Source: an uncultured Acidobacteriota bacterium (lineage in GTDB: Bacteria; Acidobacteriota; Vicinamibacteria; Vicinamibacterales; JAKQTR01). From it: a stretch of DNA of 64,000 bases. A model generated the notes under the pieces. That model saw only the letters and a list, made by a program, of their open reading frames with translations. It searched no databases and was not told where the DNA came from. The stretch is from NCBI GenBank assembly GCA_963843385.1, contig CAWJJY010000007.1, positions 363,651 to 427,650 on the forward strand, read 5' to 3'. The position numbers were made by a program, and so were the translations under genes. Positions 8,868 to 54,623 of this stretch are shown here, in pieces (position 1 is the first letter of the stretch; each line of letters begins with the position of its first letter).

Positions 8868-9044
8868 CCCGCGGCTGGGGGCTGGAGGCTGGCGGCGGGC
8901 GGCTGGCGGCTTGGGGCTTGAGGCTCGAGGCTCGCGGCTGGAGGCTGGCGGCCCACGACTGGCGGCTCGCGGCTGGTGGCTGGCGGCTGGTGGCTCGCGG
9001 CTGGCGGATGGTGGCCGGAGGCCACATGCTGGCGGCTCGCGGCC
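8868..9044 (+). repeat. Heptanucleotide tandem array A (about 25 units, consensus NGNGGCT / GGCTNGN)
   Basis: Reads cgcggct ggaggct ggcggct cgaggct ... in strict 7-nt phase, directly after the leuB-like stop. G-rich strand is the plus strand. Confidence 0.9.
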
Positions 9045-9195
9045 GTGCGCCTGTGGAATTCGGCCAGCGACCAGGGACCGGTCGGTTCAGGATGACGCAC
9101 CCTTGAAGCCGCCCAACGCCCAGCCCCTCAGCGAGTCCGTCATCCAGTCCCATGAGCAACCTCCTCAGCGCCCCGCAGGTCTAACCACTGAAGTC

Positions 9196-10215
9196 ATGAG
9201 GCGCACAGTCGAGATCCTCGTCGCGGGCGTTGCGGTCACGATCCTCGCCGTTGCGTGTGGCAAGAGCGGCGCTCCGGCTTCTCCGGTTTCGCCTGCTCCC
9301 GATCCCATTCCCGCTGATGCAACCGGTTGCGCGCGGACCTCGGTTGGTTTCGCGCCGCTCTCCGAACTCGGAACGGGCAGCTACAAGGCGCAGCCCGGAG
9401 GACTGTATCCCGGCGGGGGCTCGACCCGTCCGCCGCCACACGAGATGGCGGGTCTGGCGCGTGCCCGGTCCATCGTGCCGATGGACGGCAACGGGCAGCC
9501 AGCCGCCGGCGGCCGCTACGCCCTGCTGTCGCTGGGGATGTCGAACACGACGCAGGAATTCTCGATGTTCAAGACACTGGCCGACGCCGACGCGGCGAAA
9601 GATCCGCACCTGGTGGTGGTGGACGGAGCACAGGGCGGCCAGACCGCGCGATTGTGGGCCTCGCCCGGCTGCGCCTGCTGGTCGACACTCGACAGCAGGC
9701 TCGCGAGCGCCGGCATTTCGTCGAAGCAGGTTGCGGTGATGTGGGTCAAGCAGGCCGACTCGAATCCCAACACGGGGTGGCCGGCCCACGCACAGACACT
9801 CCGCGACGAGCTCAACACCATCCTGCACCTGCTGGCGGCCCGATTTCCCAACCTGCAGCTCGTCTATCTCTCCAGCCGAATCTACGCCGGTTACGCGACG
9901 ACCAGTCTCAACCCCGAGCCCTACGCCTACGAAGGCGCGTTTTCGGTGCGGTGGCTGATCGAGGATCAGTTGAGCGGCCGATCCGGGATGAACTACGACG
10001 CCGGCCCGGGTTCGGTGCCGTGGATTGCCTGGGGACCATACCTGTGGGCCGACGGCTTGAGGCCGCGCGGCGATGGGCTCATCTGGGCCTGCTCGGATCT
10101 GACCGCAACCGACGGCACGCATCCAAGTTCCACCGGGCAGCGCAAGGTTGCAGACCTGCTGCTGAACTTCTTCAAGACCGACAGCACGGCGCGGGAGTGG
10201 TATCTCGGACAGTGA
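9196..10215 (+). CDS. Lipoprotein, putative SGNH/GDSL-type hydrolase
   Basis: Lipobox ILAVAC. GMSNT (block I-like Ser) and DGTHPS (DxxH block V-like). The N-terminal 95 aa of the tracked ORF are translation of the heptamer array, so the start is set at ATG 9196. Confidence 0.5.
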   Translation: MRRTVEILVAGVAVTILAVACGKSGAPASPVSPAPDPIPADATGCARTSVGFAPLSELGTGSYKAQPGGLYPGGGSTRPPPHEMAGLARARSIVPMDGNGQPAAGGRYALLSLGMSNTTQEFSMFKTLADADAAKDPHLVVVDGAQGGQTARLWASPGCACWSTLDSRLASAGISSKQVAVMWVKQADSNPNTGWPAHAQTLRDELNTILHLLAARFPNLQLVYLSSRIYAGYATTSLNPEPYAYEGAFSVRWLIEDQLSGRSGMNYDAGPGSVPWIAWGPYLWADGLRPRGDGLIWACSDLTATDGTHPSSTGQRKVADLLLNFFKTDSTAREWYLGQ

Positions 10216-10216
10216 C

Positions 10217-10416
10217 GGCGGGCGGCTGGAGGCTGGCGGCTCGCGGCCTGTGGCTGGAGGCTGGAGGCTGGCGGCTCGAGGCTTCTGGCTTGACGCTCGA
10301 GGCCTGTGGCTGGCGCCTGGAGGCTCGAGGCTTCTGGCTTGAGGCTCAAGGCCTGTGGCTCGAGGCTGGAAGCTCGATGGCCCCGGCTGGCGGCTGGCGG
10401 CTGGCGGCTGGCGGCC
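10217..10416 (+). repeat. Heptanucleotide tandem array B (about 28 units) containing a 49-nt (7x7) higher-order duplication
   Basis: ggctgga ggctggc ggctcgc ggcctgt ... Positions 10272-10320 and 10321-10369 are near-identical 49-mers. The array ends with 4x ggctggc. Confidence 0.9.
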
Positions 10417-10579
10417 GCGCACGCCGCAAGGACAGATTCTCGTTCGACTCTACGGTAGGTTGGTAGGATATTGGCGATGCGGCGGGCGTCGCTGGGTCGA
10501 CGGCTCACGGCTCGAGAGCGTGCGCCCGGGGCCGCACATGCCGCGTGGCGTCCTTCTCGCTCTCCGCGGTACCGGTCTA

Positions 10580-10606
10580 TGCCGCCAGCCGCCAGCCTCC
10601 AGCCAC
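10580..10606 (-). repeat. Short heptamer array C in inverted orientation relative to array B
   Basis: Plus strand gccgccagccgccagcctccagccacc equals minus strand ggtggct ggaggct ggcggct ggcggc. It is complementary to the 3' end of array B. Confidence 0.8.
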
Positions 10607-10635
10607 CGTCTCTCTCCGTGCAGTAAACTAGGCGA

Positions 10636-11187
10636 ATGCAGTCTCTCATCACACAGCTGCTGGTACAGATGGGTGAGGATCCGGCCAGGGAAGGGCTCCG
10701 GGACACGCCCCGCCGGGTCGAGAAGTCGCTGTCGTTCCTGACGAGCGGGTACCGCGAGAACATCGACGAGGTCCTCAACAACGCCCTGTTCACGGTGGAC
10801 TACAGCGAGATGGTGATCGTCAAGGACATCGATTTCTTCAGTCTTTGCGAGCACCACATGCTGCCGTTCTTCGGGAAGTGCCACGTGGCGTACATCCCGA
10901 GAACGAAGGTCATCGGGCTGAGCAAGATCCCACGCCTGGTCGACGTCTTCTCCCGGCGCCTCCAGGTACAGGAGCGCCTCACGAACCAGATCGCGGAAAC
11001 GATCCGGGAGAAGACCGATCCAATGGGCGTGGCCGTCGTGATGGAGGCCACGCATCTCTGCATGGCCATGCGCGGCGTGGAGAAACAGCGATCATTCTGC
11101 GTCACCAGCGCGATGCTGGGAGCCTTCCGCGAGCGGGACCGCACCCGGGCGGAGTTCCTCGAGTTGATCCGGCGCGTGACGCCCTGA
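10636..11187 (+). CDS. folE: GTP cyclohydrolase I
   Basis: [23 protein letters not shown], ...QVQERLT and ATHLCM motifs are characteristic of FolE type I. Length 183 aa. Confidence 0.92.
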
Positions 11188-11500
11188 ATGAGAGAACTCG
11201 AGCGTGAGTAGTCGAGCGGGTGACCGATCGTCAGGCACCTGAACGGCCGGCAGGCCGCCCGAGCGAGCGGGAGTCGTCGGCGAGACCAGACGCCGCAGGC
11301 GGTCGCGAGCTTCGGCCGCTCGTCGAGGGGCCAGACAGAGTTGCGCCTGCAGCCCCTGCTGGGCGGCCAGTGTGCCTGATGATCGGGCAGGACCCGCGAG
11401 ACGGGCGGCGGATCACCGTCGTGGCCTGCCGCACCCTGGCAAGCGGGTCGCGTTCTCCGGCGGACTGACGGGCAGCGAGCGAGAGCGAGGGTATACTGGC

Positions 11501-12205
11501 ATGGTGCGACGCGCGGCCCTGATCGTGATCCTTGCATCCGTCGCGTTCGGCCCGCTCTCCGCGCAGGCGCCGAAGGCGAAGCGCCCAGCGGCGCCGACTC
11601 CCGCACCTGTCAAGGTCGTCCCGAAGACTGAACCCGCCGAGGTCGACTGCCCGTCCCCGCTCGGGATCGGCGTAACGACCAAGCGGGTGTTCTGCGATGT
11701 TCCGATCGGACGGACCTCGGCTGACGGGGTCGTGATCAAGATTCCCCCGCACAAAGGGCCGGCCTATCTCGTCTTCGATCTGCACAACCGCCAGACCTAC
11801 TCCGAGGAACAGGTGAAGGCCCGCAAGGCCTACGCTCGCCTGACGGCGACAATCGGCATCCTGACGATGGACAACACGCTGCTGACACGAGCGATCGTGC
11901 AGAACGAGTTCCGGTCGGCCGCCGATCTGTTCGATCGAGTCGCGGGCGGTGCAGGGCCCTCTGGCGTGAAGGCCGTCGCGCCCACCGGGGAGGAAAGTGT
12001 CCGGGCAGAAATCCCCGAAGGGACCAACGAAGTCTGCGTCCTCGGAGAGAAGCTCAGCGTCAGGCGAGTCGACGGCGATGAGCTCTTCGTGGCGCCGGGG
12101 CGTCCCATCGCCCTCATCAGCGACATCAACGTTCAGTACGTGGAGCCTCCCAGGAAGGTCCCGCCGAAGAAGGCCGCCGTGAAGAAAGCCCCCGCGAAGA
12201 AATAG
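11501..12205 (+). CDS. Secreted hypothetical protein with Lys/Pro/Ala-rich C-terminal tail
   Basis: Signal peptide MVRRAALIVILASVAFGPLSAQA. The stop TAG directly abuts the ATG of the next gene. No family recognised. The upstream part of the tracked ORF is discarded. Confidence 0.55.
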   Translation: MVRRAALIVILASVAFGPLSAQAPKAKRPAAPTPAPVKVVPKTEPAEVDCPSPLGIGVTTKRVFCDVPIGRTSADGVVIKIPPHKGPAYLVFDLHNRQTYSEEQVKARKAYARLTATIGILTMDNTLLTRAIVQNEFRSAADLFDRVAGGAGPSGVKAVAPTGEESVRAEIPEGTNEVCVLGEKLSVRRVDGDELFVAPGRPIALISDINVQYVEPPRKVPPKKAAVKKAPAKK

Positions 12206-13234
12206 ATGCCGGTTCAGCATCGCGATCTCATCATCGTCGGCGCGGGTCCGGCCGGGCTGGCGACTGCCATTGCCGCCGGTTCGCACGGCCTCGACTACCT
12301 GGTGATCGACAAAGGCGGGCTGGTCGAGAACATCTATCGCTTCCCGCGGCAGATGGTGTTCTTCACGACGCCCGAGCTGCTCGAGATCGGCGGCCTGCCG
12401 TTTGTGACGCCCTACGACAAGCCCACGCGGCACGAGGTGTTGAGATACTACCGCCGGGTGGTGGACACGTTCCATCTCTCGATTGCCTTCGATCAGGGAG
12501 TCTTCCGGATTGCGGCCGGGCAGGGCGTGGTGGACGCGACGCCGGGTTTCGCCGTGTGGACGCGATCACCATCGGGACAGGAGCGTGAGCATCACGCGCG
12601 CGCGGTCGTGCTGGCGACCGGCTACTACGACCACCCGAATCTGCTCGGCGTGCCGGGTGAGGACCTGCCGCACGTGTCGCACTACTACACCGAGGCGCAC
12701 CCCTACTTCCGGAAAGACGTCGTGGTGATCGGAGGCGAGAACTCCGCCGCCGAGGCCGCGCTGGATCTGTTCCGAACGGGCGCGCGGGTGACGCTGGTTC
12801 ATCGGGGCGCCGCTCCGGGCGGACGAATCAAGTACTGGGTGAAGCCGGATCTGGAGAACCGGATTGCGGACGGCTCGATCGTCGCGCGATTCTCGAGCAC
12901 GGTGCGCGAGATCCAGGCCTCGCACGTGGTGATCGAGCACGAGGGAGCGAGCGAGCATCTCCGGGCCGACGCCGTGTTCCTGCTGACCGGGTACCACCCG
13001 GATTTCGACCTGCTGGCGTCGGCGGGCGTTCACGTCGATCCGGTTCGAAGGATTGCGACGTTCGATCCTGACACGCTCGAAACCAATGTCCGGAACCTGT
13101 TCCTCGCCGGCGGCGTGATTTCGAGCCGCGACACCAGCCCCATCTTCATCGAGAACGGGCGCTACCACGGCGAACGCATCGTCCGGGTGCTCCTGGAGCG
13201 GTGGGCGCCGGTCGACCCTCAGCCTGCGGCCTGA
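12206..13234 (+). CDS. ypdA: YpdA-family FAD/NAD(P)-dependent disulfide reductase (putative bacillithiol-disulfide reductase type)
   Basis: IIVGAGPAGL, ...FFTTPELLEIGG.PF, ATGYYD.PN, HYY.EAHPYF...VVVIGG.NSA and IFIENG..HG are collinear with Bacillus YpdA as I recall it. Confidence 0.8.
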   Translation: MPVQHRDLIIVGAGPAGLATAIAAGSHGLDYLVIDKGGLVENIYRFPRQMVFFTTPELLEIGGLPFVTPYDKPTRHEVLRYYRRVVDTFHLSIAFDQGVFRIAAGQGVVDATPGFAVWTRSPSGQEREHHARAVVLATGYYDHPNLLGVPGEDLPHVSHYYTEAHPYFRKDVVVIGGENSAAEAALDLFRTGARVTLVHRGAAPGGRIKYWVKPDLENRIADGSIVARFSSTVREIQASHVVIEHEGASEHLRADAVFLLTGYHPDFDLLASAGVHVDPVRRIATFDPDTLETNVRNLFLAGGVISSRDTSPIFIENGRYHGERIVRVLLERWAPVDPQPAA

Positions 13235-13339
13235 CACGCTCCGGGGCGCATCCGCGACCAGCCCCGTGGCCTTCGTGAGGCAGACGCGCATCACGCGAGC
13301 CACATCGGTCTGGCTCGTCCCGCACGCTGTTCTCTGGAG

Positions 13340-13969
13340 TCAGTTCGACGTCCAGCTCTTGCCCTGGGCGTTGGAGTTCAACAGGACTTTCATCTCGAGC
13401 AGTTCGACCAGTGCGTTGCAGCGAGCCGCGATGCCCTGCCGTTCGAGGAGGGCCTGGCGCTCGACCGGTTCGAGATCCAGGTATTGCGCCAGCGCGTTCA
13501 CCACGTCATCGTCGGGCATGGTCGCCGGCAGCGGCGGCTCGGTTCCCGCCAGAGCAGGTGCCACGAGCGTCTCCAGCCGGCGCCGGCCCTGGCGAACGGT
13601 CTCGCGGTCGGTGTCCGAGGTGGACTCCGGCAGGTACTCGACGATGGCCCGGCGGTACGATCTCCCGCTCTCCTCGCCGGTGATGCGAAATCTCACGATG
13701 CCGCGAAGGACCAGGTTGTAGCAGCCGTCAGGCCTGCGCTCGACGTGGCTGATAAGCCCGACGCAGCCGACAGAGTAGACCGGAGGCTGGCCTTCGTACT
13801 CGTGCTCCCATCCGGGCCGCAAGAGCGCCATGCCGATCAGCCGGTCCCCCGCGAGGGCGTCCTTCACCATGTCGCAGTACCGGGACTCGAAGACATGCAG
13901 CGGGAGAAACACGGTGGGGAAGAGCACCGCGTCGGGCAGAGGAAAGATCGGAATCGTGGCAGGCAGCAT
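13340..13969 (-). CDS. LON peptidase substrate-binding (Lon N-terminal) domain protein
   Basis: IPIFPLPDAVLFP...LPLHVFE.RY..M pattern of the Lon N-terminal domain. Start set at the internal ATG 13969. The remaining 344 aa of the tracked ORF lie antisense to the GDPD gene and are Arg/Pro-rich. Confidence 0.7.
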   Translation of the reverse strand: MLPATIPIFPLPDAVLFPTVFLPLHVFESRYCDMVKDALAGDRLIGMALLRPGWEHEYEGQPPVYSVGCVGLISHVERRPDGCYNLVLRGIVRFRITGEESGRSYRRAIVEYLPESTSDTDRETVRQGRRRLETLVAPALAGTEPPLPATMPDDDVVNALAQYLDLEPVERQALLERQGIAARCNALVELLEMKVLLNSNAQGKSWTSN

Positions 13970-14086
13970 GAGTGTTCCCCGATTCTGGTACGGAACGGCC
14001 GGCCAAGTCCACTCGGGCACGAACCGCCACGACTGTGTTCGATCGCCAGTCGTGCCGGCGATGGAGAGATGTCGGGCGACTGAACG

Positions 14087-15930: not shown

Positions 15931-15948
15931 GCCCCTCTTCCGCCCGGC

Positions 15949-16647: not shown

Positions 16648-16746
16648 CGTTGGAAGGTGGAACCCTGGAGCGTGAGTGGAAACCTGTGTTTGATCCCGCG
16701 GCGAGAACCGATCAGGCGCATCGTGCGGACTTGTCAAGCCGCCGGT

Positions 16747-16772
16747 CCCCGGCCGCCAGCCCCCAGCCTCTC
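16747..16772 (-). repeat. Short heptamer array D (about 3 units)
   Basis: Minus strand gagaggct gggggct ggcggcc gggg, just downstream of the E2 stop at 16790. Confidence 0.6.
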
Positions 16773-16789
16773 ACCTCTGACCTGCCGCC

Positions 16790-18067: not shown

Positions 18068-18313
18068 ATTGGTGATCCTTCCGGGGGGCCGGCTTGACCT
18101 CAACGAACCCTTCCGGCTCGCGGCCATCGGCTATCGGCCTGTCACGCCACCGCGCTGGCGATCTCGGTGTTGCCTGTCTCGCTGCGCGCCAGGGCCTCGT
18201 ATCTCCAGGAATGCGCTATAAACAGCGTTTCGAATCGAGGCGCCAGCTGCCGGACGCGCCGGGGCTGCCTTCGACTCCGCTCAGGCCAGGGAAGCCCCGG
18301 CCTTCATCTGAAG

Positions 18314-18358
18314 CGCTGGCCATGAGCCGCCAGCCGCGAGCCGCCGGCCGCCAGCCGG
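18314..18358 (-). repeat. Heptamer array E (about 6 units) inside the pdhB-E2 spacer
   Basis: Minus strand ccggct ggcggcc ggcggct cgcggct ggcggct catggcc, starting 16 nt after the pdhB stop. Confidence 0.75.
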
Positions 18359-18373
18359 ACTCTCCCGTCGCCA

Positions 18374-19354: not shown

Positions 19355-19366
19355 ATCAGGGCCGTC

Positions 19367-21339: not shown

Positions 21340-21372
21340 AGGACCTTCTGCAGCGGCGTCAACACAAGATCG

Positions 21373-21381
21373 ATGATAACA
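21373..21381 (-). promoter_or_regulatory. Extended -10 promoter candidate (TGtTATCAT) for lipA-pdh
   Basis: Minus strand reads agTGTTATCATcg, 34 nt upstream of the lipA ATG, with GAAGG between. Confidence 0.4.
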
Positions 21382-21782: not shown

Positions 21783-22490
21783 ATGCGACTCTCCGGTTTG
21801 TCCGTCACGTGGCTGGGCCATACCACGTTCCTGATGACGTCGCCCAACGGCCGCCGCATCCTCTTCGACCCGTTCCTCGAGGGCAACCCCGCGTGCCCGC
21901 CGGACAAGAAGAAGATCGACAAGCTCGATCTGATCCTGGTGACGCACGGCCACTCCGATCACGTCGGCGACGCCGCGCCGGTGGCCAAGCGCACGGGCGC
22001 CACGGTGGTCGGCATCTTCGACCTGTGCCAGTGGCTCGCCCGTCAGGGCGTCTCGAAGACCTCCGGCATGAACAAGGGGGGCTCGCAGGAACTCTGCGGC
22101 ATCCGCATCACGATGGTGGACGCCCGCCACAGCTCGAGCCACATCGACGAGAGCGGCATCACGTATCTCGGCGAGGCGGCCGGGTACGTGGTGCGATTCG
22201 AGAATGGTCTGACGATCTACTTCGCCGGCGACACGGCGGTCTTCAGCGACATGCAGCTCATCAAGGAAATCTACAAACCCTCGATCGCGTTCCTCCCGAT
22301 CGGCGGGTTCTTCACGATGGATCCGGTCGAGGCTGCCAAGGCGGTCGAGTTGCTCGGGGTCAAGCTGGTGATCCCGATGCACTACGAGACGTTCCCGGTC
22401 CTTGCCGGGAGGCCGTCGCAGTTGCGGGAGCTGGTCGCGCCGCTCGGCGTCGAGGTTCTGGAAATGAAGCCGGGCGAGACGGTGGACTGA
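21783..22490 (+). CDS. Metal-dependent hydrolase, UPF0173 / MBL-fold family
   Basis: WLGH..F........ILFDPF, D.ILVTHGH.DH.GD and IPMHY.TFP. RBS GAGGTGAG. Confidence 0.8.
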   Translation: MRLSGLSVTWLGHTTFLMTSPNGRRILFDPFLEGNPACPPDKKKIDKLDLILVTHGHSDHVGDAAPVAKRTGATVVGIFDLCQWLARQGVSKTSGMNKGGSQELCGIRITMVDARHSSSHIDESGITYLGEAAGYVVRFENGLTIYFAGDTAVFSDMQLIKEIYKPSIAFLPIGGFFTMDPVEAAKAVELLGVKLVIPMHYETFPVLAGRPSQLRELVAPLGVEVLEMKPGETVD

Positions 22491-22506
22491 GGAGACACGG
22501 ACGATT

Positions 22507-22529
22507 GGCTGGCGGGGTCGCCGCCAGCC
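22507..22529. terminator. Hairpin between convergent genes, built from heptamer-repeat words
   Basis: ggctggcgg-ggtcg-ccgccagcc lies 17 nt after the stop at 22490. No U tract. Confidence 0.4.
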
Positions 22530-22632
22530 GCGCGTCTCGCCGACGTCTCCTGCTGCCCCGCGCATCGGCGGGCCGTCCTGGTGCTGGCCGCCCGGTCACC
22601 CGCTCGGCGAGGGCTCTGTCGCGACCTTCCTG

Positions 22633-23691
22633 CTAGTAGAACTTCCGCGACAGGTTGAATCCGAGGTACCAGTGGCGGGGCAGGGCCTCCTCGCGGGCAA
22701 GCTGTCCGAAGGTGGTCCCGTGATCCGTCGAGACGTTGAGCTGAAAGCTGTGCCCGCCAACTCTCTTCTCGATGCCGAACGAAATGTGCGGGTTCGATCC
22801 GGTTGTCGACCTGGTCCGAGGCGCGGTTTCCGCCACCAGGTAGGTCGACTTCATCACCCGGATGCGTGCGCCGAGTCCGACAATCAGCGTCGAGGTGCGG
22901 TCGGTGGGGGAACCCGCCACCGGGACGCTGTTTCCCACCCAGATCGGCTGGACGTAGATCGCGCCGTGCTCGCCGATCTCGTGCGAGACGATGGCACCGA
23001 TCGCAGGCGAGTAGGTGTCCTGGAAGTTGTGCGCACCCTCGATCGAGACGAGCGCCGCGACTCCGACCGGGACGCTGGCCTTCTGCTGGAGCAGCGAGTA
23101 CTCCGAGAAGAACTCGATGGTGTGATCGGAGGTGCGAGCGAATCCGAGCTGCACGCCCCGAAACAGGCCGAACCTGAACTCGAGGCCGACCTGCGCGCCC
23201 GCGTCGAGGCCGTACAGGTTCCCGATGCCGGCCTCACCGATGGGTTCGAAGAAGCGGTGCGTCAGGTGAAACGCCATCGCGTGCAGCGGCAGGCGCAGCG
23301 TCGTCGGCAGCGCGATGACGCTGAAGTCGGGCTGCGACGGGTTCAACTCGAGATCCGGATCGTCGGCGACCACGGCACGTGTCGACGTGGAGCCGGCTGA
23401 CGCGTCGGCCGGGCGCGAGGCGGGTTCCTTCTTCGACTGCGGCTTCGCGCCGCCAACCGCGACGGCTCCCGGCGTCTCGACCCGTGCCGCCGCGCCGCCA
23501 ACCGCGACGGCTCCCGGCGTCTCGACCCGTGTCGCCGCGCCGGCCGCCGGCCCGCTGATGTCAGGACGATCCTGTGCCGGCGACGAGGTGGCGACCGCAA
23601 GGCTGAAGAGCAGCGAGGCTGCCAGCGAACTCACCGACGGCGCGAGACGGCGGACTCGCTGGTGCCCTGCGAGAGGTGCGGCTTGTGTCAT
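22633..23691 (-). CDS. Predicted outer-membrane beta-barrel protein (DUF5777-like by recollection)
   Basis: Signal peptide, a low-complexity Ala/Gly/Pro region with a duplicated 15-aa segment, then alternating amphipathic strands ending ...LGFNLSRKFY (aromatic C-terminus). The ATG overlaps the upstream stop (ATGA). Confidence 0.6.
   Translation of the reverse strand: MTQAAPLAGHQRVRRLAPSVSSLAASLLFSLAVATSSPAQDRPDISGPAAGAATRVETPGAVAVGGAAARVETPGAVAVGGAKPQSKKEPASRPADASAGSTSTRAVVADDPDLELNPSQPDFSVIALPTTLRLPLHAMAFHLTHRFFEPIGEAGIGNLYGLDAGAQVGLEFRFGLFRGVQLGFARTSDHTIEFFSEYSLLQQKASVPVGVAALVSIEGAHNFQDTYSPAIGAIVSHEIGEHGAIYVQPIWVGNSVPVAGSPTDRTSTLIVGLGARIRVMKSTYLVAETAPRTRSTTGSNPHISFGIEKRVGGHSFQLNVSTDHGTTFGQLAREEALPRHWYLGFNLSRKFY
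23447..23536. repeat. 45-nt tandem duplication (2 copies, 1 mismatch) inside the barrel gene
   Basis: gcgccgccaaccgcgacggctcccggcgtctcgacccgtg(c/t)cgcc occurs twice. It is in frame and encodes RVETPGAVAVGGA twice. Confidence 0.9.
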
Positions 23692-40007: not shown

Positions 40008-40012
40008 GGCGG

Positions 40013-40888: not shown

Positions 40889-40911
40889 GTTCGACCTCCT
40901 GTGCTTTCGTA

Positions 40912-41622: not shown

Positions 41623-41641
41623 CAACGCGTGGAGAAGCGGC

Positions 41642-41944: not shown

Positions 41945-41956
41945 GCGCGACCTGTC

Positions 41957-44949: not shown

Positions 44950-44955
44950 ACGCTC

Positions 44956-45534: not shown

Positions 45535-45544
45535 GGCTCTCTTC

Positions 45545-47158: not shown

Positions 47159-47231
47159 GGGAATCTCCAAAGGGGGGCGGGAGGCAGGACCAGAGAAGCC
47201 GTCTGCCGGGACCGGTGCCCGGGCGCGGGCC

Positions 47232-48131: not shown

Positions 48132-48182
48132 TCTAGATCGATGTCGAGGCGGGGGAGAAGGGTGCGCCTCGACGGATCAGAC

Positions 48183-48234
48183 CGGCTCGCGGCTGGCGGC
48201 TGGAGGCTCGCGGCTGGCGACTGGCGGCTGGCGG
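48183..48234 (+). repeat. Heptamer array F (about 7 units)
   Basis: cggct cgcggct ggcggct ggaggct cgcggct ggcgact ggcggct ggcggc, in the divergent SCO/RRM intergenic region. Confidence 0.8.
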
Positions 48235-48300
48235 CAGAAGGGCAGCCGGAGCGAACTTGACGGTCCTTGTCGACCCCTGATCCGAATATCCCTTGACTTC

Positions 48301-48309
48301 TGCTATACT
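48301..48309 (+). promoter_or_regulatory. Extended -10 promoter candidate (TGcTATACT) for the RRM protein gene
   Basis: TGnTATACT lies about 160 nt upstream of ATG 48468, which implies a long 5' UTR. Confidence 0.35.
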
Positions 48310-48467
48310 TCCGGCCGTTCTGGTGAGACCGCGCCGAAGAAGTCTGCGTGGGTGGTGCATCAGCCGCGTCAGATTCGCGTGAGTTTTCGCCGCGGCGACA
48401 GCTCGTAGGCGCGACGGGCTCGTCGCCGTCAGATCAGCGCGCGAAGGTGTCAGGAGCAGGGTCAAGC

Positions 48468-48827
48468 ATGGGCCGCAGACTCTACGTCGGAAACCTCCCC
48501 TACAAGTGTACGGACGACGACCTCCGCAACCTGTTCAGCCAGGCGGGCGCGGTGGAGAACGTCCAGGTGATGCGTGACACGGCCACGGGCCGCGCACGCG
48601 GATTCGCCTTCGTCGAGATGGCGACCGATGAAGGCGCCCAGAAGGCGGTCGCCGATTTCCACCAGCACCAGATGGACGGTCGGGCGCTGGTGGTCAACGA
48701 GGCCAGGCCGAAGTCGCCCGGTGGCGCCGGCCGTGGATTCGGCGCAGGGCCAGGCGGTGGCGGTGGGCGCGGGCGGGATTTCGGCGGGGACTTCGGCGGG
48801 GGCCGCGGTCGCGAGCCTCGCTGGTAG
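48468..48827 (+). CDS. RNA-binding protein (RRM/RNP-1 type) with a Gly/Arg-rich tail
   Basis: LYVGNLPY (RNP-2), RGFAFVEM (RNP-1) and a C-terminal GGGGRGRDFGGDFGGGRG. Start at the ATG after AGGAGCAGGG. Confidence 0.9.
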   Translation: MGRRLYVGNLPYKCTDDDLRNLFSQAGAVENVQVMRDTATGRARGFAFVEMATDEGAQKAVADFHQHQMDGRALVVNEARPKSPGGAGRGFGAGPGGGGGRGRDFGGDFGGGRGREPRW

Positions 48828-49008
48828 GCGGCGCCCTCAGTCGCCGCGCGTCGCGATCACCCGGGTGTCCGGGTCGGCATGTCCGGGTACGAGTACCCGA
48901 CATGAAGGGGGACATTCTACCCGCCAGGGCTGGCGTCCCGCCTTCTGCTGCTGATCCGCGTCCGTCGCCTTCCGACCTTCGAGATCAACGCCACATTCAA
49001 GGATACCG

Positions 49009-49034
49009 GCACGGGCGGTGGTTGCCGCCCGTGC
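49009..49034. terminator. Hairpin (10-bp stem) between convergent genes
   Basis: gcacgggcgg-tggttg-ccgcccgtgc. Confidence 0.4.
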
Positions 49035-49180
49035 GTGATGCCATGCCGCCTCCCGCCCTGTTTGCCATGAGTGATTCCTTTCGCGGCATCCACCGTGCAC
49101 CGCAGCGCGACCGAACTCGCCGCCCGCGCAGGCTGCCATCCTGCCTCCCGCCCGGTTTGCCGCGGAGGTTTCCTACCACG

Positions 49181-50191
49181 TCATCCACAGGGCATCTCTG
49201 CGCGAGTAATCGGGCCGGAGAGAGCCTGCTCGGCGAACTCCACGATGGCGGCCTCGGCCCAGTAGCCGTCGTAGCCGTCCTGCGGCGACTCGATGAAGCC
49301 GCAGTGCCCTCCATGGCGCGTGATGACGCGCGTGATGCACGGGTTGGCGGCGAGGCTGGAGTGCTGCAACGGCCCAACGGGGATGAACGGATCGTCTTCG
49401 GCGGTAATGATGAGCGTGGGAACCCGAATGCGATCGATGACCCGCATCGACGCCGCGCGGTGATAGTAGTCGGCGGAGTCCCTGAAGCCGTGGTGAGGGG
49501 CCGTGAATCGATCGTCGAACTGGCGGACGCGCCGAACACGCCACAATGATCTGACGTCGTAGCGGCCGGGAAACTGCCGGGCCTTTCGCCGGATGCGCCC
49601 CCGCAATCCCCACATGAAGTTCCACTCGTACAGGCGATTCTGCCGCCGCTCGAGCATGTCGATGCACCAGGAGAGCTCGATGGTCGGCGAGACGGCCGCC
49701 ACGGCGCGAAGCCATCCCGGCCTGTTCGCTCCGAGTTCCCCGGCGAGCTTCAGCGCCAGGTTCCCGCCGAGCGAGTAGCCGGCGACCACCATCGCCTCGA
49801 GCCCGTCGCGCGCGGCGAGTTCGTTCAGCACCGCGATCGGGTCGGCCGTCAGCCCGGAATGGTACAGGCCCTCGGAGAGCGCCTCGGTGCCGCCGCAGTT
49901 CCGCTGGTTCAGCCGCACGACATTGAAGCCGCGACCAAAGGCCTTGTCGGCCATCCCGAGCATGTAGTGAGCCTGGCTCGAACCCTCCAGGCCGTGCAGG
50001 GCGAGCAGCGTCGGGTGTGCTTCGGGGCGGTCCTGCCAGTGGCAGTGCGCCAGGACGCGCGAGTTCGGCGCGACGTCGAACACGCGAGCCACCGCCGGCG
50101 GCAGCGTCGGGAAACGGCGGGGTCTCGCCCACGCGAGGATGGTCATGCGGTGGCCGCCGCGCAGCCAGGCGGGCGGTGAGAAGGGACGCAT
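49181..50191 (-). CDS. Alpha/beta-fold hydrolase (YheT-like)
   Basis: LHGLEGS, nucleophile elbow GYSLGGN, and an overall length of 336 aa. Confidence 0.75.
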   Translation of the reverse strand: MRPFSPPAWLRGGHRMTILAWARPRRFPTLPPAVARVFDVAPNSRVLAHCHWQDRPEAHPTLLALHGLEGSSQAHYMLGMADKAFGRGFNVVRLNQRNCGGTEALSEGLYHSGLTADPIAVLNELAARDGLEAMVVAGYSLGGNLALKLAGELGANRPGWLRAVAAVSPTIELSWCIDMLERRQNRLYEWNFMWGLRGRIRRKARQFPGRYDVRSLWRVRRVRQFDDRFTAPHHGFRDSADYYHRAASMRVIDRIRVPTLIITAEDDPFIPVGPLQHSSLAANPCITRVITRHGGHCGFIESPQDGYDGYWAEAAIVEFAEQALSGPITRAEMPCG

Positions 50192-50420
50192 ACGGTTTCA
50201 GTCTACCTTCGATGACACGTGCCGGCTGCGGGCGTCTGGCAGGTGACAGGAACCCGGCGGCCGAGACCGTCCGGGCGAGACGGTCGTCCTCCAACGTGCC
50301 GGGTCGCGCAAGGCGGTTGAAAGCGGACAGCCAGCAGCCCATTTCGTCGTGACCGAGTGAAGACCACGCGACGTCAGTGTCCGATTCGAGACGTCAGCCT
50401 TGTCTTGTGCCGCGATGCCC

Positions 50421-50441
50421 CCGGCCGCCAGCCGCCAGCCC
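50421..50441 (-). repeat. Short heptamer array G (about 3 units)
   Basis: Minus strand gttgggct ggcggct ggcggcc gggg. Confidence 0.6.
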
Positions 50442-50527
50442 AACAACTCTCTCTCGAAATGTTCTGCGCGGCCTGCTGTAGACTATGCCGTCGTCTGACC
50501 GACGAGAGGCGACGGGAGGGGGACTCG

Positions 50528-52174
50528 ATGAATGGCTCAAGGAGAGTGCTGACAATCGTTGCGGCCGTATGCCTCGGTTCCGTGTTGACGGCATCGCCCC
50601 AGCAAGGCAAGCCATCAGCGCCGGCCAAAGCCAGGATCGACCCGGCCGAGGCGAGGGTGCAGACGCTGAAGAAGGAGGCGGCATCGGACATCGACGCGAT
50701 GAAGGACTCGCTGCAGCAGATGATCGATCAGGTCTACAGCTACGGCGAGCTCGGGTTCCAGGAATTCGAGACGTCGAAGTACCTCGTCGGCGTGCTGAAG
50801 AAGAACGGTTTTTCCGTCGAAGAGGGCGTTGCGGGCATGCCGACCGCCTGGGTGGCGACCTGGGGCTCGGGCAAGCCGGTCATTGCGCTCGGATCCGACA
50901 TCGACTGCCTGCCGCAGACGAGTCAGAAGCCCGGTGTGCCCCGGCACGAGCCCCTCGTCGATGGGGCGCCGGGCCACGGCGAAGGCCACAACTCGGGCGT
51001 GCCGATGAACATCGCCGCGGCGCTCGCGGTGAAGAAGATCATGGAGCGCGACAAGCTGTCCGGCACGCTGAAGCTCTGGGCTGGCGTGGCAGAGGAGCTG
51101 GTCGCGGGCAAGGCGTTCCTCGTGCGGGCCGGGGTGTTCAAGGACGTTGACGTCGTGCTCTTCTCGCACGTGGCGAACACGATGAGCGTGTCGTGGGGAT
51201 CCGACAGCGGCAACGGGCTGGTGTCGGTCGAATACCAGTTCAAGGGCCAGACGGCGCACAGCGCCGCCATGCCCTGGCGCGGGCGCAGCGCGCTCGACGC
51301 GGTCGAGCTGATGGATGTCGGCTGGAATTTCCGCCGCGAGCACCTGCGGATCCAGCAGCGATCGCACTACGTGATCACCGACGGGGGCGATCAGCCCAAC
51401 GTGGTGCCGGGGACCGCCTCGGTCTGGTACTACTTTCGCGAGACCGACTATCCGCTCATCAAGGAGATGTGGAACATCGGCAATCGGATGGCCGATGCGG
51501 CCGCGATGATGACCGACACGACCGTCTCCTCGCGCGTCCTCGGCGCGGCCTGGCCGCAGCACTTCAGCAAGCCGCTCGCCGAAGCCACCTACGCCAACAT
51601 CACGCAGGTCGGCATGCCGAAATGGGACGAGGCCGATCAGACGCTGGCCAAGGCGGTGCAGCGCGAGCTCGACCAGCCGGAGCGGGGCCTGGGGGCCGAG
51701 GTGGGCAGGCTCGGGTCGCCGATCAGGGACGAGGACAAGCGCGGCGGCGGGTCGGACGACATCGGTGACGTGTCGTGGAACGTTCCGACCATCACGTTGC
51801 GGTATCCGGCGAACATTCCGGGCACGACGGGCCACCACTGGTCGAGCGGGATTGCGATGGCGACCCCCATCGCGCACAAGGGCTGCGTGCAGGGCGCGAA
51901 GGTCCACGCCTTCACGATGCTCGACGTGCTGTTGAAGCCCGCGCTCGTCCAGCAGGCCTGGGACTACTTCAACACCGTGCAGACGAAGGACATGAAGTAC
52001 ACGCCCCTCATCCGGCCCGAGGACAAGCCGCCGATCTGGTTGAACACCAAGATCATGGCCGAGTACCGGGAGCGGATGAAGCCGTTCTACTTCGATCCGA
52101 CGAAGTACAGGACGTACCTCGAACAGCTCGGCGTGCCGTACCCGCCTGTTGGGAAGCCGGGGAGCGCGAAGTAG
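50528..52174 (+). CDS. Secreted M20-family amidohydrolase (AbgB-like)
   Basis: Signal peptide, ELGFQE.ETS, GSDIDCLP and GHGEGHN patterns. Start at the ATG after GGGAGGGGG. Confidence 0.7.
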   Translation: MNGSRRVLTIVAAVCLGSVLTASPQQGKPSAPAKARIDPAEARVQTLKKEAASDIDAMKDSLQQMIDQVYSYGELGFQEFETSKYLVGVLKKNGFSVEEGVAGMPTAWVATWGSGKPVIALGSDIDCLPQTSQKPGVPRHEPLVDGAPGHGEGHNSGVPMNIAAALAVKKIMERDKLSGTLKLWAGVAEELVAGKAFLVRAGVFKDVDVVLFSHVANTMSVSWGSDSGNGLVSVEYQFKGQTAHSAAMPWRGRSALDAVELMDVGWNFRREHLRIQQRSHYVITDGGDQPNVVPGTASVWYYFRETDYPLIKEMWNIGNRMADAAAMMTDTTVSSRVLGAAWPQHFSKPLAEATYANITQVGMPKWDEADQTLAKAVQRELDQPERGLGAEVGRLGSPIRDEDKRGGGSDDIGDVSWNVPTITLRYPANIPGTTGHHWSSGIAMATPIAHKGCVQGAKVHAFTMLDVLLKPALVQQAWDYFNTVQTKDMKYTPLIRPEDKPPIWLNTKIMAEYRERMKPFYFDPTKYRTYLEQLGVPYPPVGKPGSAK

Positions 52175-52182
52175 AGCCGGCC

Positions 52183-52218
52183 GCTGAAGGGCCCCATCAG
52201 CGTGACGGGCCCTTCAGC
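52183..52218. terminator. Bidirectional hairpin (12-bp stem) between convergent genes, overlapping the last codons of the minus-strand gene
   Basis: gctgaagggccc-12 nt-gggcccttcagc. Confidence 0.5.
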
Positions 52219-53708
52219 CCGTAGATCCAGAACCGCGCGTTGCGGTAGGCAACGGGCAGATCCAGCGCGTGCTCCGTTACGAGATAGTCGACGTCGTATC
52301 GCGCGGCGACCTGCCGCGCGTGCACGGGGGTGAGATCCTGAAAATCGCCGAGCGCGCGCGTGCGCTCCAGGACGCGCGCGGCGACGCGCCGCGAATACAT
52401 CGCCATGGCGCTGTCCTTGACCTCTTCGAGGAAGGTGTCTCGCTCGCCTGAAACACGCGCGCTGGTGCCGTAGCGGTACGAGTGGCCTGGATCGACGAGT
52501 ACGTGGGTCGAGGGAGGCGTCCGGGCAATCCATCCCATCGCGTCTTCCCACTCGCCGGTACCGGGTCCCATGCGCACGACCGCCTGCCCGGCGTGCTCGA
52601 CCAGCGTCACATACGCGCCGCGGCCAAGCGCTGCCGCGACGACGATCAGCGCGACGGCGGCCCGACCGCTCCACGCCGGCCGCGCCTGCATCGCCGCGCG
52701 CGATCGCGCGTCCACCGCCAGCCACACGGCGTAGAGGATCGCCATGAAATCGACCATCCAGAACACGCGCGAGATCTGCAATTGGACGGCGATGGCGAGT
52801 CGGGCGTGCACGAGGGGAAGCGTCACGGCGAAGATCAGGAGCAGCACGAGCACCCCGCCGACCAGCCCGCGTTCCTGGGGCGTCGACACGCCAAGCCTCC
52901 GCCGCCGCACAAACACCAGCGGGACGACGATCGCATAGAGCGCGGTGACGAGCCACATGGACACCGGCCACGTCGTCGGGAAGAGGTAGCCTTTGCCCGA
53001 GAGCACCTGCAGCCAGTCGGGATCCATCCGCACCACTTGCGCCGCCAGCGGTCCCGCCGTCAGGGCCCAGGCACCGGCCAGTGCGCAGGCCGCACCCGCA
53101 CCAAGCAGCCACGGCCGGGCCGCCCGATCCGAAATCATGATCGCGGCGCCCAGCCAGATGCCAAACCACATGCCCGTCGTCGGGTGGACCAGAACTGCGA
53201 GCGCCGCCAGGACCACCGCGACGATGTGCCGGCCGCGCAGGAATGCCGCGACCGCCACGATGCCGATGCCCCAGGCCAGCATGCGCGGGTGCGCGTAGCC
53301 TTCCAGCGAGTTCACGGCGGTCATCCCGATCCGGTGGCGCAGGGTGAGCGCGAAGGCGAATGCCGCCTGTGACCATGCGGACAGGCGGAGCGAACGGGCA
53401 ACGAGCATTGACCCGGCAAAGGCAAGGCCGAGGCTGGCGAGATACAAGACGGCGAAGATGGAGGGAATCGAAATCCCGGTTGTTCGCACCACACCGGCAA
53501 TGGCCCGGTTGGTGACTGTCAACCGGTCCTGGTCGTCGATGAGCTGACGATCACGAGGAAAGAAATCAGGGTGGAGGTGGCGCAGGATCCCGGGAATGTA
53601 AAACGCCTGGTCGCCGACGCCATAGCGATACGCGCCGCAGTTGAGTGTGGCGACGCCGGCGAAGACCAGCGCCGCCAGCGTCCAGGCCGCAAGGGTTCGA
53701 AACGTCAT
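52197..53708 (-). CDS. Polytopic integral membrane protein (function unknown, GT-C-like topology possible)
   Basis: About 12 hydrophobic segments followed by a soluble C-terminal region. No motif recognised. Confidence 0.55.
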   Translation of the reverse strand: MTFRTLAAWTLAALVFAGVATLNCGAYRYGVGDQAFYIPGILRHLHPDFFPRDRQLIDDQDRLTVTNRAIAGVVRTTGISIPSIFAVLYLASLGLAFAGSMLVARSLRLSAWSQAAFAFALTLRHRIGMTAVNSLEGYAHPRMLAWGIGIVAVAAFLRGRHIVAVVLAALAVLVHPTTGMWFGIWLGAAIMISDRAARPWLLGAGAACALAGAWALTAGPLAAQVVRMDPDWLQVLSGKGYLFPTTWPVSMWLVTALYAIVVPLVFVRRRRLGVSTPQERGLVGGVLVLLLIFAVTLPLVHARLAIAVQLQISRVFWMVDFMAILYAVWLAVDARSRAAMQARPAWSGRAAVALIVVAAALGRGAYVTLVEHAGQAVVRMGPGTGEWEDAMGWIARTPPSTHVLVDPGHSYRYGTSARVSGERDTFLEEVKDSAMAMYSRRVAARVLERTRALGDFQDLTPVHARQVAARYDVDYLVTEHALDLPVAYRNARFWIYGLKGPSR

Positions 53709-53945
53709 TGGCTTTCAGCGATTCGTCCTTTGGCGCACGGCCGTCGCGGTCCACCCTCCATGCGTCATGCGATGCACCGTCAGCAACCGGCTCGTGGGCG
53801 TCGGTTTGGCGTTACGATGAAGCCTCATTCGGGGTGTCCTCCAGAAAGAACGGGTTGGCTTGGTCGCTCCCATTCTTTCCAGGGAGCCCCGAATGGACAA
53901 CGTGTCTGGCAAACACACCTAGCTCGTAGTCCCCAGCCCCTGGCC

Positions 53946-54449
53946 TCAATCCCCTGGTGCCTCGTCCGCACTAGGTCCGTAGATGCCCGGAACGAGCGAC
54001 CCGGTCTGCCTCAGGTACACACTGAGCTGACCGCGATGATGGATCATGTGGTTCATGACCCAGCCTCGGAACGCTGCTGCGCGCGGCATCGTCATCAGCG
54101 CACGATCTCCGCGCTTGAACGTCCAGGTCCCGTTCCACTCGGCATCAGTCATGGTTCCGATCCGGGCGCGAACCTCTGCCACGGCCTCATCAAACGCCCG
54201 CAGCATCTGATCGACCGAGTCGAGACTTCGATCGGTGCGGCCTTCGTCTGCTCGCTCGTACATCGCATCGCGGAGGATCGCGTCTCCGAACTTCGGGATT
54301 TCCACCACGTGCGTCGCCAGCCGCCCGAGCGTCATCGATTTCCGATGCGGACTCCAGCCCAACTGGCCCGGGTTCACGCGCTCGATGACGCGCCGGGTGA
54401 CCGCGGTCTCATGGTCGAACTCGGGCAGCACGCTTTCGGATATCGACAT
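53946..54449 (-). CDS. DinB-family (four-helix-bundle metal-binding) protein
   Basis: HVVE, and MIHHRGQLSVYLR near the C-terminus. Length 167 aa. Confidence 0.8.
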   Translation of the reverse strand: MSISESVLPEFDHETAVTRRVIERVNPGQLGWSPHRKSMTLGRLATHVVEIPKFGDAILRDAMYERADEGRTDRSLDSVDQMLRAFDEAVAEVRARIGTMTDAEWNGTWTFKRGDRALMTMPRAAAFRGWVMNHMIHHRGQLSVYLRQTGSLVPGIYGPSADEAPGD

Positions 54450-54562
54450 CTACATCCTCTACTCGGGTTCTGAGGGCCAGCGATCAGGCGCCGGTTCGCG
54501 CGTCGCGGGCCGGCAAGTTGCCTGTCTTCGTCGCCTGAATTCTGCGTGATCCCAGTCTGACT

Positions 54563-54623
54563 CGCCCCAAGCCCCGCCCGAAGCCCCGAGCCCCGAGCCT
54601 CCAGCCGCCGGCCTCCAGCCGAC
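54563..54623 (-). repeat. Heptamer array H (about 6-8 units)
   Basis: Minus strand gtcggct ggaggcc ggcggct ggaggct cggggct cggggct ..., directly downstream of the stop at 54638. Confidence 0.75.

Follow-up and report, generated by a model that had tools for sequence, protein, structure and literature searches.

Heptanucleotide arrays between the genes of an Acidobacteriota contig

We analyzed 64,000 nucleotides (nt) of contig CAWJJY010000007.1 from an uncultured Acidobacteriota bacterium of the order Vicinamibacterales (assembly GCA_963843385.1, positions 363,651 to 427,650), referred to below as the window. Its intergenic spacers hold a dispersed family of tandem arrays built from a G-rich heptanucleotide with the consensus GGCTGGC. 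The arrays lie beside genes for an isocitrate/isopropylmalate dehydrogenase, a lipoprotein-like protein, FolE, the E1 beta and E2 subunits of a 2-oxoacid dehydrogenase, UDG-family, CusF/SCO1 and RRM proteins, an alpha/beta hydrolase, an M20 peptidase, a 938-aa protein and a DinB-family protein. Homologues of the lipoprotein-like gene (9196-10215) and the M20 gene (50528-52174) number in the thousands, and the named ones belong to Vicinamibacterales or Acidobacteria. The gene map was based on G+C content at third codon positions (GC3) and checked against Pfam and the database gene calls of near-identical contigs. The window has 67% G+C, and 12.9% of it is non-coding.

Tandem Repeats Finder (TRF) and a lag-k self-match scan (periods 5-11) were run over the full window. 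TRF returned a period of 7 at every one of the eight loci that an initial annotation of the sequence had grouped into one dispersed family with a strict 7-nt period. That tally was incomplete, as a small ninth array at 18115-18142 had been missed. The range of 3 to about 28 units given there held up: we measured about 25, 28, 3, 4, 6, 7, 3 and 8 units for arrays 1 to 8, and about 3 for the ninth. The arrays, with a hairpin made of the same words, are listed below; the strand is that of the G-rich sequence.

Array 1: 8866-9044, plus strand; about 25 heptads (TRF 8871-9043, period 7, 20.7 copies, with a 35-nt higher-order period); follows the isocitrate/isopropylmalate dehydrogenase gene (stop codon 8841) after 24-31 nt and leaves 151 nt to the start (9196) of the lipoprotein-like gene.
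Array 2: 10217-10416, plus strand; about 28 heptads (TRF 10217-10415, periods 7, 28 and 49, 87% match for 49), with a higher-order duplication of 7 units (49 nt), its last units forming a perfect (GGCTGGC)4 run; starts 1 nt past the stop codon (10215) of the lipoprotein-like gene.
Array 3: 10580-10606, minus strand; 3 heptads (TRF 10581-10604); 29-31 nt before the folE start (10636), with its C-rich strand in the folE leader and inverted relative to array 2.
Array 4: 16734-16772, minus strand; 3-4 heptads (TRF 16747-16768); between the 2-oxoacid dehydrogenase E2 gene, whose stop codon (16790) is 17-21 nt away, and the downstream UDG-family gene.
Ninth array: 18115-18142, plus strand; 3 degenerate heptads (TRF 18121-18139, and scan); 47 nt upstream of the E2 start (18067, set from the lipoyl-domain position and a 425-aa orthologue), antisense, and inverted relative to array 5.
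Array 5: 18314-18358, minus strand; 6 heptads (TRF 18325-18357, and sequence); 15 nt past the stop codon (18374) of the E1 beta gene, within the E1 beta-E2 spacer.
Hairpin: 22507-22529, no strand; perfect 10-bp stem GGCTGGCGG(G)-loop-(C)CCGCCAGCC of array words; 16 nt past the stop codon at 22490, in a spacer where two genes converge.
Array 6: 48183-48235, plus strand; 7 heptads (TRF 48183-48235, and scan); 60 nt upstream of the minus-strand CusF/SCO1 gene (start 48122), antisense, with the start of the RRM RNA-binding protein gene (48468) 232 nt downstream.
Array 7: 50420-50441, minus strand; 3 heptads (TRF 50424-50440), in a spacer between divergent genes; antisense to the M20 peptidase gene, whose start (50528, assigned from a database protein of 548 aa with 100% identity) is 86 nt away, with the alpha/beta hydrolase start (50191) at 228 nt on the other side.
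Array 8: 54563-54623, minus strand; about 8 heptads (TRF 54564-54620, and scan); 14-17 nt past the stop codon (54638) of the 938-aa gene; the DinB-family gene (start 54449) begins 113 nt farther on.

All period-7 segments share the consensus GGCTGGC, with variation mainly at positions 5 and 7, and each heptad holds 4-5 G and 1-2 C. We counted 33 copies of the two-unit pattern GGCTNGNGGCTNG in the window, whereas 100 dinucleotide-preserving shuffles gave an expectation of 0.36 and never more than 3. The self-match scan returned nine segments (375 nt) at period 7, one at period 6 and none at period 5 or periods 8-11, with 0-1 segments in shuffled windows; the only short period enriched in the window is 7. 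Higher-order periods of 35 and 49 nt show that duplication has also acted on blocks of 5 and 7 units.

Together the nine arrays occupy 654 nt, or 1% of the window, and account for about 8% of the non-coding DNA in it. All lie clear of genes, an outcome with a chance probability of about 1e-8, which bears out their earlier placement outside coding sequence. Because period 7 shifts the frame at every unit, the arrays are not coding repeats here, and we rejected a translated repeat on those grounds. Flanking open reading frames (ORFs) end before the arrays and their orthologues are array-free. Long ORFs do run across arrays (e.g. 8720-9106 and 8911-10215) and translate as strings of the WRLAAGG type; these are spurious, as the initial annotation had held. 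Neither a tRNA scan nor an Rfam search of the whole window at gathering threshold returned a relevant match.

On the G-rich strand, a purine-rich motif of the GAGAG type lies 0-8 nt 5' of the first unit in all five minus-strand arrays (3, 4, 5, 7 and 8), as GGAGAGAGA, GGTGAGA, GGGAGAGTC, GAGAGAGAG and GGAAGAGTC (flanks e.g. 10607-10620, 16769-16780, 18359-18373, 50442-50460 and 54621-54637). The motif is absent 5' of plus-strand arrays 1, 2 and 6 and of the metagenomic arrays described below.

An ORF adjoins the 5' end of the G-rich strand

The orientation of the arrays had been called non-random, and it is: for nine of nine window arrays, the nearer of the two flanking genes is the one 5' of the G-rich strand. 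Five of these have the G-rich strand sense to a gene whose stop codon precedes them by 1-31 nt, in agreement with the five post-stop arrays originally described. The other four lie 29-86 nt upstream of a start codon on the opposite strand (folE, E2, CusF/SCO1 and M20), with the G-rich strand antisense, and two of them (60 and 86 nt) sit beyond 50 bp. Here the initial annotation fared less well. It had placed two arrays in 5' regions and taken the G-rich strand as sense at seven of eight loci, but three of its arrays do not follow a stop codon (four with 18115-18142), and since the nearest gene of each start-proximal array is on the opposite strand, the figure of seven depends on which neighbor is counted. 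All nine arrays do obey one rule: an ORF, in either orientation, adjoins the 5' end of the G-rich strand.

In metagenomes, a scan with the heterogeneous 20-mer GGCTGGCGGCTCGCGGCTGG retrieved 90 contigs and yielded 42 family arrays on contigs of at least 60% G+C; 52 of 76 matches were intergenic. For the 42 arrays, the median distance was 18.5 nt to the 5' neighbor versus 143 nt to the 3' neighbor, and the 5' side was the closer in 18 cases versus 2 (p = 4e-4). The median distance to a stop codon, a test that does not depend on start-codon calling, was 9 nt for arrays with the G-rich strand sense versus 86 nt for those with it antisense (p = 0.002), and more than half of the sense class begin 0-3 nt past the stop. 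Start codons showed the reverse, at 30 nt (antisense) versus 178 nt (sense).

A scan of a genome collection gave at least 120 loci in many phyla, mostly perfect single-unit arrays, from which no taxonomic distribution can be derived. Among the matches listed, at least about 100 G-skewed heptamer arrays from many phyla showed the same polarity, lying 11 nt (G-rich strand sense) versus 96 nt (antisense) from stop codons (p = 2e-4) and 38 nt (antisense) versus 179 nt (sense) from start codons (p = 1e-5), and many loci held several arrays of unrelated heptamers. A contig of the Acidobacteriota metagenome-assembled genome (MAG) AnMBR.bin219 (L096:241-6682) holds 13 heptamer arrays within 8 kb, with the units ACGGGAG, ATGGTTG and AGATAGG, and array-rich stretches with several unrelated units also occur in L012, L005 and L070. 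Array-rich genomes occur in several phyla, each with its own unit repertoire.

About ten metagenomic arrays lay inside genes. On inspection these were in-frame insertions in flexible linkers: between the transmembrane and nucleotide-binding domains of an ABC transporter (an inverted pair), in an E2 lipoyl linker and in a linker following a signal peptide. The initial annotation had also raised the prospect that the arrays are translated parts of proteins; none is in the window, but these few inter-domain linker arrays in related metagenomic contigs are in frame. Overall, our data show that the arrays are excluded from constrained coding sequence. In two orthologous ABC-transporter genes (L158:350-381 and L189:1030-1158), the in-frame inverted heptamer pair lies between the membrane and ATPase domains and translates as GGSRLAAG...PPAASRRPPA; judging from these sequences, the repeats there appear to be becoming a protein linker.

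Polar growth of the arrays is unsupported as the cause of the polarity. Across 168 arrays, units of the 5' third and of the 3' third proved similarly diverged (p = 0.16), leaving no 5'-3' gradient within them.

Arrays change length between strains and are absent in sister species

We compared the window with a near-identical strain (ENA ERZ25039502, a 520-kb contig; loci L121 and L218), which shares 98.1% DNA identity over 41.6 kb and holds all the same array loci. Over those 41.6 kb, five of the six indels of at least 4 nt fall in arrays, which make up about 1% of the DNA. Length differs at five of the eight shared loci, so the length polymorphism between strains that had been anticipated is present. 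Arrays 1 and 6 keep their unit number, with two substitutions each, and array 4 is identical. The terminal perfect GGCTGGC run of array 2 has 3 units versus 4 in the window, array 3 has 4 versus 3, and array 5 has 3 versus 6 (a 19-21-nt deletion), while array 7 is about 10 nt longer than in the window. Array 8 is split by a 162-nt indel; this segment (L218:14045-14210), missing from the window at 54586-54596, indicates a deletion or insertion through recombination between repeat units. The array-length differences await read-level confirmation, yet they are clean multiples or near-multiples of the unit.

The contig of the near-identical strain also differs from the window by more than 100 single-base indels, and several of its genes are fragmented (TonB receptor, E2). 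Such indels are typical of long-read consensus errors and are not trustworthy. The arrays themselves are not assembly artefacts, because they recur both in this independent assembly and in short-read JGI metagenome contigs.

In syntenic sister species (L122 and L219; 81-87% protein identity), arrays are absent at the orthologous junctions, and the spacers measure 0-130 nt versus 140-420 nt in the window. The dehydrogenase-lipoprotein spacer is about 0 versus 354 nt, lipoprotein-folE 132 versus 420 nt, E1 beta-E2 50 versus 306 nt and E2-UDG 31 versus 142 nt (the last two in L122); in L219, the spacer between the 938-aa gene and DinB is 33 versus 188 nt and that between the hydrolase and M20 about 100 versus 336 nt. 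Array 6 is likewise absent in L219. An exception lies downstream of the lipoprotein gene in L122, where a terminator-like hairpin is followed by a mini inverted pair, GGCTTCAGGCTTCGGGCTTCAGGC ... GCCTGTAGCCTGAAGCC, of GGCTTCA units. Its 3' arm ends 31 nt before the folE ATG, as array 3 does in the window. Three further, more distant relatives that are not syntenic (L213, L214/L215 and L216/L217) hold no arrays in 13-21 kb. The array family is young, lineage-specific and labile, and our comparisons show that arrays are made and resized by strand slippage and unequal recombination between units.

This fast turnover fits a neutral mutational by-product, in which a chance-seeded heptamer expands and decays in non-coding DNA and its placement marks no more than where insertions are not lethal. 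Array-free sister species, unit numbers that differ between near-identical strains, degenerate units and the few arrays tolerated in protein linkers all agree with such an origin, as do perfect single-unit GGCTNGN microsatellites in many phyla (among the genome-collection matches listed). An excess of heptamer simple sequence repeats (SSRs) is widespread in bacteria and is ascribed to polymerase slippage (Mrazek, 2007, as cited in PMC4692102). Tolerance predicts, however, that arrays near upstream stops should take either orientation, whereas arrays with the C-rich strand sense keep close to downstream starts (median 30-38 nt) and well away from stops (86-96 nt; both ranges partly from the genome-collection matches listed). 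Arrays also adjoin stops at 0-3 nt far more often than uniform placement predicts, and the unit-decay gradient that would mark a polar mutational process is missing. Orientation matters, and the arrays are therefore "seen" in a strand-specific manner. We regard a purely neutral origin as possible but doubtful.

Predicted structures of the G-rich and C-rich strands

As RNA, the G-rich strand is self-complementary: CGGCUG is a self-complementary hexamer with two G.U pairs, and GGCU pairs with itself through G.U. In ViennaRNA predictions, (GGCUGGC)12 forms one fold-back hairpin of 6-bp helices with single G.G mismatches at -65.4 kcal/mol, versus -24.8 kcal/mol for its C-rich complement. Array 1 RNA folds at -127.9 kcal/mol on the G-rich and -78.3 kcal/mol on the C-rich strand, and the G-rich strand folds better in eight of eight arrays, with natural arrays at about -0.6 versus about -0.35 kcal/mol per nt. 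Single-stranded DNA behaves alike (-20.4 kcal/mol G-rich versus -3.0 kcal/mol C-rich). Units that extend the helix are moderately enriched (63 of 122, versus 37.5% expected). The hairpin at 22507-22529, correctly recognized at the outset as built from array words, is predicted at -17.9 kcal/mol as DNA (z = -3.7).

A second kind of structure was already suggested in the initial annotation, namely two-tetrad G-quadruplex-like folds of the RNA. In line with a proposal for the Xanthomonas and Nostoc repeats, GG tracts would form such quadruplexes in RNA or in non-template DNA and would modulate transcription or translation. GG tracts recur 1-2 nt apart throughout the arrays, and with quadruplex energies included, ViennaRNA places local two-layer quadruplexes in the minimum-energy fold of seven of eight natural arrays, at a gain of 3-10 kcal/mol. 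Quadruplexes have been obtained in vitro from related heptamer repeats (PMC4692102). In long arrays, however, the fold-back hairpin is predicted to be the more stable, and in perfect arrays of at least six units, where it offers 4 G-C and 2 G.U pairs per 7 nt, it beats the quadruplex outright. The G tracts of three or more found in canonical quadruplexes are absent, and because the units carry GG only, the arrays can form only two-layer quadruplexes, which are weak at best. The preference for four units that Rehm et al reported as a signature (PMC4692102) is not seen in the window arrays, which run from about 3 to 28 units. Quadruplex-based elements therefore strike us as quite unlikely.

A different reading would place the function in the C-rich strand or in a bound protein. 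Ring-shaped proteins such as HutP and TRAP read spaced triplets, and the arrays might likewise be a protein platform read in a 7-nt register. They might instead be a directional insulator, whose C-rich transcript would act as a Rho-loading (Rho utilization, rut) site that blocks incoming untranslated transcription. The strict register over up to 28 units suits a platform, and predictions give the C-rich strand (C/G = 2) almost no structure (-0.03 to -0.4 kcal/mol per nt); in both positional classes, polymerases heading into the neighboring ORF would make the C-rich RNA. Yet no candidate protein co-varies with the arrays, the adjacent RRM gene being present in array-free sister species as well. 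The unit sequence differs between lineages (GGCTTCA in L122), array length is highly variable, and a rut site before a start codon would lower expression of that very gene. We hold both versions to be distinctly improbable.

Inverted pairs and Chi-like units

Two pairs of window arrays (2 and 3; 5 and the array at 18115) are inverted relative to each other. The array 3/array 2 duplex is predicted at -64.5 kcal/mol versus -43.5 +/- 3.7 kcal/mol in shuffles (z = -5.7). An inverted partner for a long-range stem is found in only about 5 of 21 co-directional cases, and we rejected obligatory pairing of a post-stop G-rich array with a pre-start C-rich array on this count.

Inverted pairs could also be the ends of a small mobile palindromic element that transposes between genes, akin to repetitive extragenic palindromic (REP) sequences or miniature inverted-repeat transposable elements (MITEs). 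The pairs enclose cores of 164-172 nt at the two window loci, relatives carry an inverted pair in the ABC-transporter linker, a hairpin of array words exists at 22507-22529, and window spacers are 100-350 nt longer than those of sister species. The cores are dissimilar, however, and the heptads are the only repeat family linking the loci, which rules out a REP- or MITE-like element with a conserved body. Target-site duplications and conserved termini are both lacking, as is an inverted partner in all but about 5 of 21 co-directional arrays. Spacer tails show no G skew and only a weak lag-7 excess (0.297 versus about 0.273), with no similarity between loci in those on the 3' side; decayed arrays can account for these tails at most in minor part. 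A mobile origin is accordingly very improbable.

GGCTGGT units contain the Escherichia coli Chi octamer GCTGGTGG, with exact matches at 8972-8979 and 8986-8993. Chi protects the DNA on its 5' side, which would fit an ORF at the 5' side of the G-rich strand, and perfect GGCTGGT arrays are present in enterobacterial and other genomes (among the genome-collection matches listed). The orientation of the window arrays follows the neighboring gene and not replication: four arrays are on the plus and five on the minus strand, while the cumulative GC skew of the window rises almost monotonically. The octamer occurs in only 2 of about 90 units, and being that of E. coli, it may not be that of Acidobacteriota. 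We rejected a Chi signal on orientation grounds and give it next to no chance. Perfect microsatellites of 7-18 GGCTGGT units were found in Bordetella, Mixta, Opitutaceae and Zymobacter (L001, L019, L032 and L094, among the matches listed), so some enterobacterial genomes would appear to hold tandem Chi arrays.

Comparison with known heptamer repeats

The REP and bacterial interspersed mosaic elements (BIMEs) of enterobacteria are abundant extragenic sequences in 3' untranslated regions (UTRs) and intercistronic spacers, and their stem-loops protect upstream mRNA from 3' exonucleases. A REP very close to a stop codon can affect translation of the upstream gene. REP sequences are imperfect palindromes of 20-40 nt with conserved sequence, commonly arranged as inverted doublets and mobilized by RAYT transposases, whereas the arrays described here are direct tandem heptads of variable number without a conserved palindrome; only the hairpin at 22507-22529 is REP-like. 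As regards REP and REPIN elements, no conserved core or terminus links the loci, and no search for a RAYT gene was made outside the window. CGG and CUG triplet repeats offer a structural parallel, in that the repeat strand folds on itself into GC-rich helices with regular mismatches, is strand-asymmetric and is prone to slippage. The present repeats differ in having a period of 7 rather than 3, in being bacterial and in lacking disease or expansion-threshold biology.

The closest known relatives are the GGGAATC repeats of Xanthomonas campestris and X. axonopodis and the GGGGA(C/T)T repeats of Nostoc PCC 7120 (Rehm et al, 2015, PLoS One; PMC4692102). These are strict 7-nt tandem units with a G-rich strand, dispersed at 2-26 units per locus with a strong intergenic bias, and they lie closer to the 5' neighbor whatever its orientation, with occasional inverted pairs. 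They vary in length and sequence between close relatives, most are transcribed, and they show no tie to gene function classes (PMC4692102). The paper leaves their function open, and cites Mrazek (2007) for a general excess of heptamer SSRs and for polymerase slippage. Our arrays share the head-to-tail 7-nt units, the intergenic bias, the rule of the 5' neighbor, the inverted pairs and the variable unit number of this class. They differ in carrying GG rather than GGG or GGGG tracts, which excludes a canonical three-tetrad quadruplex, in lacking a preference for four units, in the heterogeneity of units within arrays, and in a G-rich strand that is self-complementary through G.U pairs. Their density is about fivefold higher, at one locus per 7 kb versus roughly one per 40 kb (our rough estimate, not a figure from that paper). 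Unlike in Xanthomonas, where about 90% of loci are common to two species, sister species here lack the arrays, and the phylum is Acidobacteriota. The GGCTGGC arrays are a further example of this known kind of heptamer repeat, with two features of the published class missing (G tracts of at least three and the four-unit preference).

The initial annotation had named the short tandemly repeated repetitive (STRR) sequences of heterocystous cyanobacteria (Calothrix and Anabaena) as the closest analogy. The comparison is fair, as STRR sequences are described in PMC4692102 and PMC4679880 as dispersed, mostly intergenic and lineage-specific tandem heptanucleotides; but unit sequence, phylum and GC content differ from those of GGCTGGC in Vicinamibacterales, and the Xanthomonas and Nostoc repeats are much closer. 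TAACTGA direct repeats, of which one genome has 169 sets, occur in marine Beggiatoaceae, some Cyanobacteria and Bacteroidetes (MacGregor, 2015, PMC4679880). They are likewise abundant intergenic heptamers with strand-specific placement beside ORFs, for which a post-transcriptional role has been proposed. Those repeats are AT-rich, have 2-6 copies and lie mostly a few nt upstream of starts on the sense strand, whereas our main class follows stop codons and our upstream class is antisense. Geobacter metallireducens carries multicopy, GC-rich four-heptad GGACCGG elements (49 copies), as well as MTYCTGA heptad sites, with proposed regulatory roles (Aklujkar et al, 2009; PMC2700814). Unlike our arrays, the GGACCGG elements are fixed at four units, occur within as well as between genes and have a different sequence. 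Literature text searches returned no description of GGCTGGC arrays, nor of such repeats in Acidobacteriota.

Other repeats and a conserved leader in the window

A ~90-nt inverted repeat has its arms at 11213-11301 and 22519-22606 (two adjacent arms, 71-79% complementary), one just past the folE stop codon and the other just past the stop at 22490, adjoining the GGCTGGCGG hairpin; it may represent another family of 3'-flank elements. A 95-nt tandem duplication at 49024-49205 (1.9 copies, 76% identity) lies downstream of the RRM gene, and its second copy enters the 3' end of the alpha/beta hydrolase gene (stop 49181). A 45-nt tandem repeat at 23446-23542 (2.2 copies, 98% identical, equal to 15 codons) is very recent and lies within or just upstream of the minus-strand ORF 22633-23691.

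The gene at 48468-48827 encodes an RRM-domain RNA-binding protein with a glycine/arginine-rich tail. About 190 nt of its leader (from about 48285) are almost invariant relative to the sister species, which has only 83% protein identity elsewhere, and this conservation suggests a regulatory 5' UTR. The region 48236-48827 gave no Rfam match, and a search of the folE and RRM leaders at E <= 1 gave no relevant match either.

Discussion

Insertion and slippage are blind to the positions of ORFs, so the polarity of the arrays must come from selection able to tell one strand from the other, and this points to transcription. Nothing within the arrays mirrors the polarity, and for this reason too we take it as transcription-linked, strand-specific selection. 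Our preferred reading, to which we give a probability of roughly 0.5, is that slippage-made repeats are filtered by strand-specific selection on transcripts, possibly as 3'-UTR structures. Under this model, the G-rich strand would be read as the first bases of the 3' UTR after a stop codon and would fold back on itself. Such an array may be harmless, or may be a useful 3' structure that shields or insulates the upstream message, in the manner of REP elements in E. coli. The same G-rich, structured RNA, resembling a Shine-Dalgarno sequence (GGAGG-containing), would be selected against close to a downstream ribosome-binding site, whereas the unstructured C-rich strand would be tolerated in leaders about 30 nt from start codons. 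There it may sometimes pair with an upstream G-rich array into a long-range stem.

Several observations weigh against this model. Any 3'-UTR role in this organism is one that we infer. The folding advantage of the G-rich strand is largely compositional, with a z of only -1.7 for array 1 against dinucleotide shuffles and of about 0 for array 6 as DNA, and GGCTGGA, GGCTCGC and GGCTCGA are among the many units that break the extended helix. No T-tract follows any array, and a terminator scan of 8700-11300 found none at the arrays; without a T-tract behind them, they are not canonical intrinsic terminators. Sister species manage without arrays at the same gene junctions, and several arrays lie between genes that are tightly linked and probably operonic in relatives (E1 beta-E2, E2-UDG, and the 938-aa gene and DinB). 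This argues that the arrays are dispensable, whatever they do, and that any termination is inefficient. The antisense class upstream of starts, about one third of arrays, is explained by tolerance only, with no positive role.

A broader reading takes the rule of an ORF at the 5' end, seen in about 150 arrays of differing unit sequence from many phyla (the genome-collection part among the matches listed), as the mark of a general, unrecognized class of orientation-dependent bacterial UTR element, in which arrays are re-invented by slippage and kept by selection and are not junk. We think this unlikely. If true, a G-rich fold-back or quadruplex would define or protect mRNA 3' ends in GC-rich genomes without U-tract terminators, and the C-rich strand would act as an unstructured leader or a Rho-entry module.

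Heptamer repeats are the one class of long SSR known to be over-represented in many bacterial genomes, and the window is an unusually dense, long and heterogeneous example from a poorly studied soil phylum. Set beside its near-identical strain, it documents changes in unit number directly; set beside sister species, it does so for the gain or loss of arrays. In practical terms, the arrays yield spurious ORFs (WRLAAGG-type "proteins") and inflate intergenic spacers, and they are natural strain-typing markers for uncultured Vicinamibacterales. The polarity reported for three genomes in 2015 extends to many lineages and unit sequences, in the genome collection among the matches listed, and this makes the choice between junk and a 3'-UTR element testable.

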